Shown: positions 421 through 42,231 of the stretch, piece after piece
Layout of the letters: each line of letters opens with the position of its first letter
Numbering within the stretch: position 1 is the first letter of the stretch
From: Candidatus Micrarchaeia archaeon
Lineage (GTDB): Archaea > Micrarchaeota > Micrarchaeia > CABMEP01
DNA length: 64,000 nt
Direction: 5' to 3'
Assembly: GCA_038886535.1 (NCBI GenBank)
Contig: JAVZXS010000001.1
Coordinates: forward strand, 1 to 64,000
Made by a program: the position numbers and the translations under genes
Notes under the pieces: generated by a model
Told to the model about the DNA's origin: nothing
Seen by the model: only the letters and a program-made list of their open reading frames with translations
The model's database searches: none

Positions 421-2795
421 GCAGTGATAATCACTGTATTTGTGAGTGCTACGCCATTCAGGGGATGGCTAGGCTTGGTTTTCAGGCAGACGTGGCAAGC
501 TGCGATAAGCGACGGGTAGCTGCAAGCAAGCGTTGATCCGTCGATCTCTGTGTGCCTGGCGACAGGTAAACACGCGGTGAATTGAAACATCTTAGTAGCC
601 GCAGGAAGAGAAACCAATCGGGATCCGGTTAGTAACGGCGAGCGAAAGCCGGAGAGAACAAACTGAATCCTGTGCAGTAATGTACAGGAGATGTGGGCGT
701 CTCAACCATCCTTTACTGGAGCTGAAGTCAGCTGGAACGCTGCGCGATACAGGGTGAGAGCCCCGTAAGCAAAAGGTAGAGGAGGGAGACGAAAAGAGTA
801 ATACTGGTTGGTAATCCAGTATGAAGATGGGTGGAGCAACATCCAATTCTAAACAGGTAACCAAGACCGATAGCGGATTAGTAGCGTGAGCGAACGCTGA
901 AAAGAACCCAGAAATGGGAGTTAAAAGTGCCTGAAACTGAATGGTCACAGGTTGATACGGTATGAAAGGGACGAAGGAGTCAAAAGGAAGCAGCAGCAAT
1001 GCTGTTGTACGATGACTCTGGACCAGTATCGTATCGTACTTCTCGAATCAAGATCCAGGGAGTAGATAGTAGTGGCGAGCCGAAAGGCGGAGCGAAAGCG
1101 AATGCACGCAGTGCTGAACGAGGTGCATCGTACGAAAGTGCGTTTAGTCACTATTATCTGACCCGAAACGGTTGCGATCTACACTGGAGCAGGCTGAAGC
1201 CGGTCTAACGACTGGTGGAGGGCCGCAACTAGTGCTAGTATATCTGCTTAGGTGACTCCTGTGTAGGGGTGAAAGTCCAATCGAGCACCGCGATAGCGGG
1301 TTCCTCCCGAAGCATCCCTCAGGATGACCCCTGTGGAGATGGATTGTGGGGTAGAGCACTGATTAGAAAGAATAGGTTCGAAAGAGCCTGCTTTCTTGTC
1401 AAACTCCGAATCTACAATCATCGTAGAAGCAGGGAGTCGGGTTTCGCTGGGTAAGCTAGCGAGCCGTGACGTGAACGAACGAGTCTTGGGTTAAAGCCCC
1501 TAAATTCCAGCTAAGTGTGAAGCCACAAGGAATGTATATTTCTAGACAGACGGGACGTAGGCTTAGAAGCAGCCATCGTCTAAGCAACGCGTAATAGCGG
1601 ACCGTTCGACACCAACGTTTGTTGGGGGAAATATACAGGCCGAAAATGTACGGGACTAAAGCTGGATGCTGAGACCCAAGGGCACACCCGAAAGGTGTGA
1701 TCCGGTAGGGAGGTGTGCGGTACGGAGAGAAGTTGGGGCGTGAGCTCCAATGGACCGTATTGCAATAAATATCCTGGAGTTAGTAGCAGCAAATACTGGT
1801 GAGAATCCAGTACGCCGAAAGCCCACGGTTTTCTTGGCAACGTTCGTCAGCCAAGAGTTAGTCGGTCCTAAGTCTCCAGCTAATTACTAGGAGACGAATG
1901 GGAAACAGGTTAATATTCCTGTACCATAGTGGTAGACGCGGCAACGCAAGGTAGGAACATGACGTCTGGGGCTAGGCAGAGCAGGGGAGACCCTGTTTAA
2001 GCGACATAGTACTGCGGAGTCTCGTTATGAGGAGAAGCAGTATAAGGCGCGAATAGCCCTCGTTTGAGGGTTCTGTTGAGGCCTTGGACCCGTGAAAAGT
2101 GGTCCTATCCGATCCACTATGACCGTACCTAGAACTAGTACAAGTGTGGCTAGCTGAAAAGGCTTAGGCGTGGTAGGGGAACTCTCGTTAGGGAATTCGG
2201 CAAATTAGACCCGTATCTTCGGTAGAAGGGTTGCCTGCGCTTGTATCTTAAGGTGCATGTGCAGGTCTCAGTAACAAGGGGAGAGCGACTGTTTATCAAA
2301 AACACAGGTAACCGCAAAATCGTAAGGTCTAGTACGGTTGCCGATGCCTGCTCACTACCAGTACCCGAAAATCTCGTTCAAGAGATCTAAGGGCTGGCGA
2401 AGAGCGGGGATAACTCTGATCCTCTTAAGGTAGCGTAATACCTCGTCGCTTAATTGGCGACTTGCATGAAGGGCATAACGACTCTCCCACTGTCCCAACG
2501 AGGGACCTAGTGAACTCACTGCTCCGTGAATATGCGGAGGAATCCTAGTGGGAAACGAAGACCCCGTAGAACTTTACTATAGCCTGTTGTTGGAACTCAG
2601 GGATTGTTGCAGAGAGTAAGTGGGAGCGTAGAAACCTCGGTTGCGGCTGAGGTGGATGCGAAAGTGTAACACCACTCTTCAATCTTTGTGTTTCTTACCT
2701 GAAAGGGGACAGCGGCAGGTGGATAGTTTGGCTGGGGCAGTACGCCCTCAATAAGGAAATAAGGGCGCCCAAAGCTCTGCTCAACCCGGTCAGAA

Positions 2796-2908
2796 ATGAC
2801 CGCATGGTGGCGGATGATATAATGAACAACCTCTGACGCAGCATCCTACTGCGATTTAGTGATGAGGTTGAACAGCGAATGACGCATATCATCGTGCGGC
2901 CACTGAAA
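2796..2908 (+). other. 23S rRNA BHB intron in helix 84 loop (~E. coli 2310/2311), 113 nt
   Basis: Central helix TCAG(2790-2793)/CTGA(2903-2906), bulges AA^A and AA^G, intron stem 2797-2810/2889-2902; splicing restores ACCCG GTCAGAAGT CGGGT. Confidence 0.93.
2810..2885 (+). ncRNA. Putative intron-encoded box C/D guide sRNA targeting the U2552 equivalent (3295) of 23S rRNA
   Basis: Box C-like ATGATAT 2814-2820, D' CTGA 2833-2836, C' GTGATGA 2859-2865, D-like ATGA 2879-2882; 12- and 13-nt spacers both complementary to the A-loop at 3291-3303; GCG/CGC terminal stem. Confidence 0.7.
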
Positions 2909-3050
2909 GTCGGGTGAAGACGGTTAAAGAGAAATGCAGGGCTGACTGTGTCCTTAAAAGCGTGGGACGCAGAGGCGAAAGCCGGGCTTAACGAACACTG
3001 AAATCCTTTTGTTAAGGGCTCAGTCTGTCAGACAAGTTACCTCGGGGGTA

Positions 3051-3148
3051 ATCTTCTCAGTTGCACCACATCACCTTGGACATACACTCCTCTCCAATAT
3101 TCATTATCGTATTTTTATTGTCCTTTTCTGTAACTGTGAAGACCCAAA
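3051..3148 (+). other. 23S rRNA BHB intron in the peptidyl-transferase centre (E. coli A2450/A2451), 98 nt
   Basis: Central helix GGGG(3045-3048)/CCCA(3143-3146), bulges TA^A and AA^A, 14-bp intron stem with one mismatch; splicing restores GGGGGTAACAGGC. Confidence 0.93.
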
Positions 3149-3175
3149 ACAGGCTCGTCGCGGGCGAGAGTACCC

Positions 3176-3220
3176 TGCGACAGCTTAGTCTTCGTTAGAA
3201 CACTAGTCTGTCGCGTACAT
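3176..3220 (+). other. 23S rRNA BHB intron in helix 89 (~E. coli 2477/2478), 45 nt
   Basis: Perfect central helix GTAC(3170-3173)/GTAC(3215-3218), bulges CC^T and AT^A, stem GCGACAG/CTGTCGC; splicing restores GAGAGTACCCATCGAC. Confidence 0.92.
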
Positions 3221-3808
3221 ATCGACCCCGCGGCTTGGTACATCGCTGTCGACCTATCTCATCCTGGGCGTGCAGGAGCGCCCAAGGGTTGGTTTGTTCA
3301 TCCATTAAAGAGATACACGAGTTGGGTTCAGTACGTCGCGAGACAGTACGGTAGTATCTACTAGGATTGCATCTGCCTGAGGGGAACGCCCCACTAGTAC
3401 GAGAGGAACATGGGACGGGCGCCTCTAGTGTACCGGTTGTAACAAGCATTGCCGGGCAGCCACGCGCCAAATCATAAGACCTGAAAGCATCTAAGGTCGA
3501 AGGATTGCCCAAAACTAGGCAGACGTGAGAGCGGGTAGCAGACCCGTTTGATAGGTCAGTGGTGTAAGCAGCGAGCTTACGCGAGCTGCGAGCCAGCTGA
3601 TACTAAATCTCCTTACTCACAAATCTTTTCGTGTCTTTCACTCAAACTTATTTCTTATTTTTCTTTAAAATTATACTTCCCTAGCGTAAGCTCTTTTGAG
3701 TAATCTGATATATTTATATTCCTTTATTTGCATATTATATTATTCACAGATATGTTCTGTGATCTGTTTTAATTGTATCTACAATTTTATCTATTTGTAG
3801 GTGAAAAA

Positions 3809-41085: not shown

Positions 41086-42231
41086 TTATGGTTGTACCCA
41101 TTCTATTTCATAGTATTCATACTTGCTTTTAGGCAAGTTTATTCTTTTAACTCTGTAATATGTAACAGAAGTTTCCCTATCTACTATTCCAAGCATGACA
41201 TCTAATCCAATCTCCTTTGCTTCTTCTATTGCAGATGCGAGTTCATTCCCTCCAATCATCTCATCCTCACTAAGAGATACAAGTGCAAAGGAGGGACTGT
41301 CCTTTTCAGGTGTTTCAATATTGTTGTTTTTTCTATGATATAATAAGAAGCTTATCATTCCTTTTTCTAATTTTGTTTTCTTTCCAGGTATTGCAAGTAT
41401 GAAGGTTTTTCTTACCCCATGCGCAACCCTTATTGCTCTTGCCCATTCAGCAATTATCATTCTTTTTTCTCTTGGAAATACATGAAGAACATGTTTTGAA
41501 TGAGTCCAATCTTTTCCTTTTCCTGGCAATGCGCCAGGGAAATATATCCTGAAATGTGTTCCGAACTTGAAGCCAGTCTTCACTACAAATCCATTCATTC
41601 TCCAGTCTTCATAGACATTATACATTGATTCGAAATCGTTTTCTTCCTTCAATATTTTTTCCAATTCCTTTTCAGTCAAGTTAATCAGTTTCAGCCCACA
41701 ATTCTTAACAAGAAAATATGTCTCAAACTTATCTAACTTTAGGAACTTTCCTCTTCCTTCTGCCTTGTATGAACCATATTGTCCGATCCAATAATTATTA
41801 TAAAGCTCCTTTCCAATCTCTTCATTTTCCAATATTGCCATTTTATCGTCTTTGAAGAATATTGCTTCAGCCTGGATTTTTGGGAATTTTGTTTCTTTAC
41901 TTGGATATTTTACAGTGGGATTTTTTTCATATTTGCCATCTTTCTTGTATTTTTTAATTATCAGTCCTCTTTCTCTCCAATCACGGAATGTCATGTATTC
42001 TGCAAACATCTTTTCCTTATTGAATCTCTCTGCTATTTGCGAGAAGGTGATTTCCTTTCCATTTTCTATGCAAACAGCATTTCTCACTTCTATTAGATAC
42101 ATTGCTTCCTCAGGAGTTATAACTATCTCTCCCTTGCCTTTTTCACCGTAGTAAGATCTTCTCAGTGCTTCATAGTCTTCAGGATTTTTCACTTTAAGCT
42201 TTCCATCTTCAAGGAAAATAGTTATTGGCAT
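41086..42231 (-). CDS. endA: tRNA splicing endonuclease, probably epsilon2 (three-unit) type
   Basis: 381 aa; KTGFKFGTHFRIY, His in WTHSKH, RVAHGVRK; GSYK loop resembling the ARMAN-specific loop. Confidence 0.92.
   Translation of the reverse strand: MPITIFLEDGKLKVKNPEDYEALRRSYYGEKGKGEIVITPEEAMYLIEVRNAVCIENGKEITFSQIAERFNKEKMFAEYMTFRDWRERGLIIKKYKKDGKYEKNPTVKYPSKETKFPKIQAEAIFFKDDKMAILENEEIGKELYNNYWIGQYGSYKAEGRGKFLKLDKFETYFLVKNCGLKLINLTEKELEKILKEENDFESMYNVYEDWRMNGFVVKTGFKFGTHFRIYFPGALPGKGKDWTHSKHVLHVFPREKRMIIAEWARAIRVAHGVRKTFILAIPGKKTKLEKGMISFLLYHRKNNNIETPEKDSPSFALVSLSEDEMIGGNELASAIEEAKEIGLDVMLGIVDRETSVTYYRVKRINLPKSKYEYYEIEWVQP

Follow-up and report, generated by a model that had tools for sequence, protein, structure and literature searches.

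The window, by which we mean the whole stretch of 64,000 nucleotides analysed here, opens on the 3'-terminal 65 nt of a 16S rRNA and carries an archaeal 23S rRNA at positions 437-3625, as located with the Rfam archaeal LSU model. The host is a Micrarchaeota (DPANN) genome of 1.14 Mb in 40 contigs (G000, 88% complete), and the sequencing runs in which the sequence was found are labelled as hot-springs metagenomes. A complete 16S rRNA lies on a separate contig (G000:C23:1127-2654), and its presence there together with the 16S 3' end at positions 1-65 here is probably due to an assembly break in the rRNA operon. Comparison of the 23S rRNA with the Rfam model revealed a 114-nt insert in a hairpin loop, which we take to be that of helix 84 (H84). 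E. coli numbering follows the Rfam alignment and, for U2552, excerpts of Dennis et al. (2015, PMC4644070), in which it is the A loop's first nucleotide. The insert is a canonical BHB intron of 113 nt occupying 2796-2908, with two 3-nt bulges, a 4-bp helix between them and helices on both sides; repeated A's leave its boundary ambiguous by up to 2 nt. The features of the intron, its predicted targets and a candidate splicing endonuclease are listed in Table 1.

Table 1. Features of the H84 intron, its predicted rRNA targets and a candidate splicing endonuclease (window coordinates).
Feature	Position	Strand	Remarks
BHB 5' exon strand: outer helix 2784-2789, central 4-bp helix 2790-2793	2784..2793	+	
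5' bulge AAA, 3 nt, containing the 5' splice site	2794..2796	+	invariant in 14 introns
BHB intron (113 nt), 23S rRNA H84 loop	2796..2908	+	Rfam LSU insert; RNA-library contigs
Terminal stem H3, 5' strand, from the BHB to the C/D k-turn	2797..2809	+	pairs with 2890-2902
GCG, 5' strand of the canonical stem under the C/D k-turn	2810..2812	+	pairs with CGC 2883-2885
Box C, non-canonical AUGAUAU	2814..2820	+	aligns with RUGAUGA of free-standing homologues
12-nt D' guide complementary to the A loop; N+5 base A2828	2821..2832	+	
Box D' CUGA	2833..2836	+	
D'-C' linker hairpin CGCAG/CUGCG (2837-2841/2849-2853)	2837..2853	+	
Box C' GUGAUGA	2859..2865	+	
D guide, 13 nt; N+5 base A2874	2866..2878	+	
Box D, non-canonical AUGA	2879..2882	+	
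H3 3' strand 2890-2902, central-helix CUGA 2903-2906, 3' bulge AAG 2907-2909	2890..2909	+	
D guide target: PTC central-loop strand; predicted site U3247	3243..3254	+	
D' guide target: helix 92/A loop; predicted 2'-O-methylation site U3295 (E. coli U2552)	3291..3302	+	
Pfam tRNA_int_endo match in a 385-aa open frame; candidate BHB-cutting splicing endonuclease (EndA)	41377..41634	-	78.3 bits

Comparison with the 23S rRNAs of three other genomes (G009, G013 and G034) revealed two further insertions in the window 23S. One, of ~97 nt (3052-3148), lies inside a motif, between GGGGGUAA and ACAGG, has a BHB-like closure and adjoins the A2451 equivalent; the same place holds an insertion in G004 and one of ~400 nt in G007. 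The other is a hairpin insertion of ~45 nt in the H89 loop (3176-3220). No C/D boxes were seen in either.

RNA contigs from two metatranscriptome samples join position 2793 to 2907; the junction includes two ambiguous letters, and precisely 113 nt are skipped. These spliced contigs (depth about 2854 and 2488) cover 2654-2793 and 2907-3050. With 5-6 mismatches to the window over 284 positions, an identity of ~98%, they come from a close relative. The junction contigs could possibly reflect an intron-less DNA allele in that relative, but within the genus the intron is present wherever a genome's 23S extends as far as H84 (the 23S contigs of G001 and G008 end before it). The depth of the intron region in the RNA contigs was zero, and two raw metatranscriptome runs (X23 and X24) contained only 1 and 3 partly fitting reads, respectively, too few to inform on the intron RNA. 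Collectively, the sequence and the RNA contigs demonstrate the removal of 113 nt from a pre-rRNA with a BHB at H84. In addition to the candidate EndA in the window, the host genome has a second EndA-type match on contig C16 and encodes RtcB. The Pfam match to RtcB is split into two parts (1-52 and 46-426; L200, L201) within a single 1008-aa frame (G000:C2:11179-13989), as expected if an intein were inserted.

The intron contains the elements of a box C/D guide RNA, and every box, spacer and stem coordinate in a preliminary description of the window proved correct when checked on the sequence. That description had also cautioned that boxes C and D are imperfect, as indeed they are. Box C agrees with RUGAUGA at 5 of 7 positions and box D with CUGA at 3 of 4, and the same two variants occur in all eight genome-derived H84 copies. 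Box C retains the G3A4 required for tandem sheared G·A pairs with box D; the usual G-C pair is replaced by A·A, but this tandem G·A core is intact, as is the stem beneath it. A k-turn to which L7Ae is predicted to bind can thus be drawn from the sequence (GCG / GAU bulge / GA...GA / CGC), and covariation supports the stem below it. The internal boxes C' and D' are both present and the core of the D' guide, GAACAACC, is conserved throughout the class. The D spacer is one nucleotide longer than the D spacers of a congeneric intron (G004) and of free-standing homologues, which are 12 nt like the D' spacer.

The fold was examined in an alignment of 14 distinct H84 introns, eight rows of which derive from metagenome contigs. 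Scanning metagenome contigs with a sequence pattern gave 40 matches, comprising 16 further H84 sRNA-introns and 24 chance matches. The pattern fixed box C, the guide core and D' in the eight rows, which therefore carry no information on the conservation of these elements. For the fold consisting of the BHB, the terminal stem, GCG/CGC and the linker hairpin, 95.5% of the cells were paired compared to 30-45% when the partners were slid; 17 of the 31 pairs had changed on both sides, and the observed scores were reached in none of 500 shuffles. The 5' exon strand pairs with 2910-2915 (outer helix) and 2903-2906 (central helix) in 100% of cells, and 3 of the 6 outer pairs show compensatory changes. 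The central helix and both bulges are conserved in 14/14 introns. Changes on both sides were found in 9 of the 13 pairs of H3 (95.9% of cells paired) and compensatory changes in all five pairs of the linker hairpin. The GCG/CGC stem is paired in all ten rows with letters there and never varies. The loop of the linker hairpin (2842-2848) keeps a UCCUA motif in most H84 introns while its stem co-varies.

Conservation was uneven along the intron. Box D (mean pairwise identity among the 14 introns 0.91), box C' (0.79) and the D guide (0.77) were better conserved than the linker (0.33) and H3 (0.54-0.57). Two alternative helices, GATGATAT/ATATCATC and CAACCTC/GAGGTTG, had been raised in the preliminary description as pairings that could hide the boxes and guides. 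Across the 14 introns neither showed covariation beyond one pair belonging to the C'/D' motif, that of D' guide position 1 with C' position 7 (U-A to A-U), which largely answers this concern. Orthologous introns keep the boxes and guides, and covariation between guide and A loop is present as well (see below).

To place the intron among its relatives, a BLAST search with the intron alone was performed on 61 related genomes. The same intron was found in the genus and family; in other families, the matches were short free-standing RNAs with the same two spacers and the canonical boxes RUGAUGA...CUGA...UGAUGA...CUGA. When the class was searched with a sequence-only covariance model built from 11 seeds, 115 of its 151 genomes were matched (101 at E <= 1e-4), nearly always with a single copy. 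The window intron, itself one of the seeds, scores 57.1 bits, and it is the sole copy that the model detects in the host genome. These results indicate, from sequence comparison, that the core of the intron is homologous to a class-wide, single-copy, double-guide box C/D sRNA. One family (f5) largely lacks the sRNA, with matches in only 3 of its 21 genomes, all of them weak.

Inspection of the flanks of 114 loci revealed three genomic settings. Ninety-seven loci have no adjoining rRNA and eight, all from the window's order, are carried by the H84 intron (G000, G002-G007 and G009). The remaining nine occupy an insertion at another 23S position, just after H63 and corresponding to window ~2266, in genomes of five other families (G015, G050, G055, G063, G071, G099, G103, G144 and G150; loci L102 in G015, L014 in G050, L129 in G055 and L087 in G150, together with L211, L213, L221, L230 and L245). 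The boundary at this second site is a 4-bp helix, GCAG/CUGY, with two 3-nt bulges and a co-varying inner helix. The terminal boxes of the second-site copies are often degenerate (CGGA, CCGA or CCUA). Such degeneracy fits a relaxed constraint on the terminal boxes when a BHB stem closes the RNA, and the same trend in independent second-site introns suggests relaxed constraint rather than decay. H84 itself holds no insert in 21 genomes from other families. Introns recur at this position: unrelated inserts of 86 nt and ~29 nt, both without C/D boxes, occur there in G018 (L103) and G014 (L049), respectively, and G014 has a further insertion of ~930 nt near H84.

2'-O-methylation of U2552 is near-universal. 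The preliminary description had proposed that spacer 1, the D' guide, targets the equivalent of this nucleotide in the host 23S. Against 3291-3302 the spacer forms a wobble, a pair, a mismatch, eight Watson-Crick pairs and a final mismatch, which places A2828 opposite U3295 at N+5, and no better site for it exists in the organism's own 16S and 23S. Since 65 of 300 spacer shuffles reached an 8-bp run somewhere in the rRNAs, the complementarity in the window alone is not beyond chance; the significance of the match comes from the homologues and from covariation. Guides and 23S rRNA were parsed together in 35 genomes. In all 35, at least 8 of positions 2-11 of the D' guide are paired with the A loop, and the mean Watson-Crick run of this guide through position 5 is 9.1. 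Among intron-borne copies, a compensatory change joins an A loop UGUAC to the guide TGTACAACC (G007, L163, L177 and L159). In the genus of the window, a U at 23S position 3293 creates a mismatch at position 3 of the D' guide. An antisense match to rRNA with its target at N+5 is thus present, with covariation at two guide positions, and the assignment of spacer 1 is upheld: sequence comparison supports the view that the intron contains a C/D guide with a D' spacer aimed at the U2552 equivalent of its own host rRNA. A genome-wide antisense scan for targets was uninformative, returning hundreds of chance sites. Records of 23S-bearing 'plasmids' in an E. coli genome collection were unusable for numbering, as they are not E. 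coli rRNA.

These data also bear on whether the intron could be a relic, that is, a decaying copy of the sRNA that directs no methylation and persists because it is harmlessly spliced out. The non-canonical boxes C and D, the extra base in the D spacer and the mismatch in the D' duplex would suit such a copy, as would the failure to see intron RNA in the RNA contigs. However, a relic would not be expected to be the sole copy in the genome, nor to show, over 14 diverged introns, guides and boxes that have changed far less than its linker and stems. The compensatory guide/A-loop change arose within the intron-bearing lineage, and the degenerate-box trend recurs in the independent second-site introns. 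We therefore regard a relic as quite improbable.

The second spacer, the D guide, had been described as a further guide to U2552, with A2874 opposite U3295. The pairing itself is real in the window, where a wobble and six Watson-Crick pairs run through position 5, but our results do not support a second U2552 guide. On the strand of the PTC central loop, the same spacer forms seven contiguous Watson-Crick pairs with 3243-3249, and a bulge of one guide A would raise this to 12 of its 13 positions. The partner of the conserved core A(C/T)AGCG is the PTC sequence UCGCU(G/A)UCGG. At position 6, the guide base follows the base at Ec2505 in 35/35 genomes with zero exceptions (C-G in 25 and T-A in 10); the ten T-A genomes are spread over four families and may go back to one event. 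In 34/35 genomes, the PTC strand offers the D guide a longer Watson-Crick run through position 5 than the A loop does (7 versus 6 in the window). The longer run and the tracking of Ec2505 by position 6 together suggest that the N+5 target of the D guide is U3247, which lies 48 nt upstream of U3295 and which, by this offset, we take to be the equivalent of U2504. In the 40 PTC-covering sequences among 42 aligned Micrarchaeia 23S, the position that we read as E. coli A2503 (window 3246) is C in 40/40, and the Ec2505 position (window 3248) has A for G in 10/40. Both bases are unusual in the PTC and both are matched by the D guide.

Redundant double targeting, in which both spacers would guide methylation of U2552, has some features in its favour. 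In the window and four relatives of its genus with the 13-nt spacer, the D spacer gains a G·U and six Watson-Crick pairs on the A loop that bring A2874 opposite U3295, and this A-loop value is the highest for the D spacer among the 35 genomes. This gain coincides, in the same genus, with the change at 3293 that weakens the D' duplex and could therefore be compensatory. Positions 1-3 beside box D are nevertheless unpaired in this register and position 4 is a wobble, and G004, a member of the same genus with a 12-nt spacer, has only four A-loop pairs. Confined to five genomes of one genus and with guide positions 1-3 unpaired, the pairing of the D spacer with the A loop is at most secondary. Taken with the class-wide A(C/T)AGCG core and the longer PTC runs described above, this makes double targeting of U2552 unlikely.

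The proteins of a C/D RNP, fibrillarin, Nop5 and L7Ae, are all encoded in the host genome. As the preliminary description had suggested might be the case, RlmE was not found there in a scan for the FtsJ Pfam domain, with the proviso that the genome is 88% complete and the gene could have been missed. The sole FtsJ-like match is KsgA rather than RlmE. The stronger matches among the 61 relatives scanned are of two kinds: the one in G009 is TlyA-like and not RlmE, and those in family f5 are THUMP+FtsJ proteins that fall under the NCBIfam cut-offs. An FtsJ-domain match was present in seven of eight sampled f5 genomes, in open frames of about 360-420 aa. Both of the f5 proteins examined (L195 and L196) have the THUMP+FtsJ arrangement, with RlmM and the TlyA family as their respective best NCBIfam matches and rrmJ weaker in both, all below cut-off. 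In this family, which largely lacks the sRNA, an FtsJ-domain protein may replace the guide.

The antisense elements might instead act as a folding chaperone only, holding the A-loop and PTC strands in cis during assembly of domain V without any methyl transfer. The two targets share a domain and follow shortly downstream of the intron, and it has been proposed that double guides which bridge neighbouring rRNA sites help folding, according to excerpts of PMC7994747. We consider this very improbable, however, as an N+5 register on a near-universally methylated uridine has been kept throughout the class, the fibrillarin gene is intact and the free-standing homologues have fully canonical boxes.

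Together, these results suggest, with a probability of roughly 0.8, that the H84 intron represents the sole copy, in this organism, of a class-wide double-guide C/D sRNA that has moved to a BHB intron inside the gene it targets and guides methylation of U3295 and U3247. EndA would cut the BHB, and RtcB would join the exons and probably circularise the intron. L7Ae is expected to bind both the C/D k-turn, which sits above the long BHB-proximal stem, and the C'/D' motif, after which Nop5 and fibrillarin would assemble. The D' guide would then pair with the A loop and direct methylation of the 2'-OH of U3295, the U2552 equivalent, and the D guide would pair with the PTC strand 48 nt upstream and direct methylation of U3247, the presumed U2504 equivalent. 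The two sites, in the same domain V, are found 340-390 nt downstream of the intron, so that the RNP could act in cis on nascent pre-rRNA, before splicing, or in trans after excision.

A broader reading, which we hold to be slightly better than an even bet, is that a near-universal Micrarchaeota guide for U2552 and U2504, two uridines on either side of the peptidyl-transferase A site, has entered BHB introns of its own target rRNA on two or more occasions, at the H84 loop in one order and after H63 in five other families, so that the transcript delivers its guide, probably as a splicing circle or in cis. If this is true, rRNA modification would be self-encoded and stoichiometric with rRNA synthesis, and these introns would be an archaeal counterpart of the snoRNAs hosted in ribosome-related genes. 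Closure by the BHB stem would also replace the k-turn in end protection, leading to degenerate terminal boxes. The series of free-standing, H84 and second-site copies provides a natural experiment on guide genes moving into transcribed hosts. It bears on the relaxation of box constraint when splicing defines the RNA ends, and on the coupling in cis of modification to rRNA transcription and splicing. It would also give rRNA introns a function beyond selfish mobility.

Among curated Rfam families, none matched the intron at the gathering or E-value thresholds. The best weak match was to yeast snR52 (RF01195), at 17.2 bits compared to a gathering threshold of 45, and the intron is not a member of that family. 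We take snR52 to be the guide for the same uridine, Um2921 in yeast. Its guide and D' box align with the D' guide of the intron in the same register, a likeness that is due to the shared conserved target.

Guide-directed formation of Um2552 is itself already known: in the excerpts of Dennis et al. (2015, PMC4644070), free-standing C/D sRNAs are predicted to methylate the first A-loop nucleotide in five species. These sRNAs share the target nucleotide, the N+5 logic and the RNP with the H84 intron. They differ in that their genes are independent or overlap ORFs. In bacteria, Um2552 is made by RlmE/RrmJ/FtsJ, of which a homologue occurs in Haloferax (PMC2584109, in excerpt). The product nucleotide is the same, but RlmE is a stand-alone protein enzyme, and none was found in the host genome. 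Group I and BHB introns are reported in Micrarchaeota rRNA genes by Nawrocki et al. (2018, PMC6125680), the excerpted text of which does not mention sRNAs. The excerpts of the 2021 account of archaeal C/D sRNAs (PMC7994747) give ORF overlaps, clusters, tRNA fusions, tRNA introns and intergenic regions as their contexts, and do not list rRNA introns. The preliminary description knew of no rRNA-intron equivalent, and no C/D guide in an rRNA intron was found in the full-text literature searched, in which 'C/D' is unsearchable as such.

Eukaryotic intronic snoRNAs resemble the present case in that a guide RNA is released from an intron of the host transcript, but there the introns are spliceosomal, the RNA is trimmed by exonucleases and the host is not the target RNA (PMC7994747, in excerpt). 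The closest known system is the C/D guide in the euryarchaeal pre-tRNA-Trp intron, present in Haloferax volcanii and as sR50 in Pyrococcus. As far as that source's excerpts and the literature searched extend, tRNA-Trp is the only archaeal case described of an intron guide acting on its host RNA. Both there and here, a complete C/D guide lies in a BHB intron with its targets in the exons of the same RNA. In the present case, however, the host is 23S rRNA, the targets are 340-390 nt away in the PTC and A loop, and the terminal boxes are degenerate. The same sRNA is also free-standing in most relatives and occupies a second rRNA intron site in others. The feature is real and well supported. An intron-borne C/D guide is of a known kind, but here the host is the 23S rRNA of an organism that appears to be without RlmE, and the guides are predicted to act on two nucleotides in the core of the peptidyl-transferase centre.
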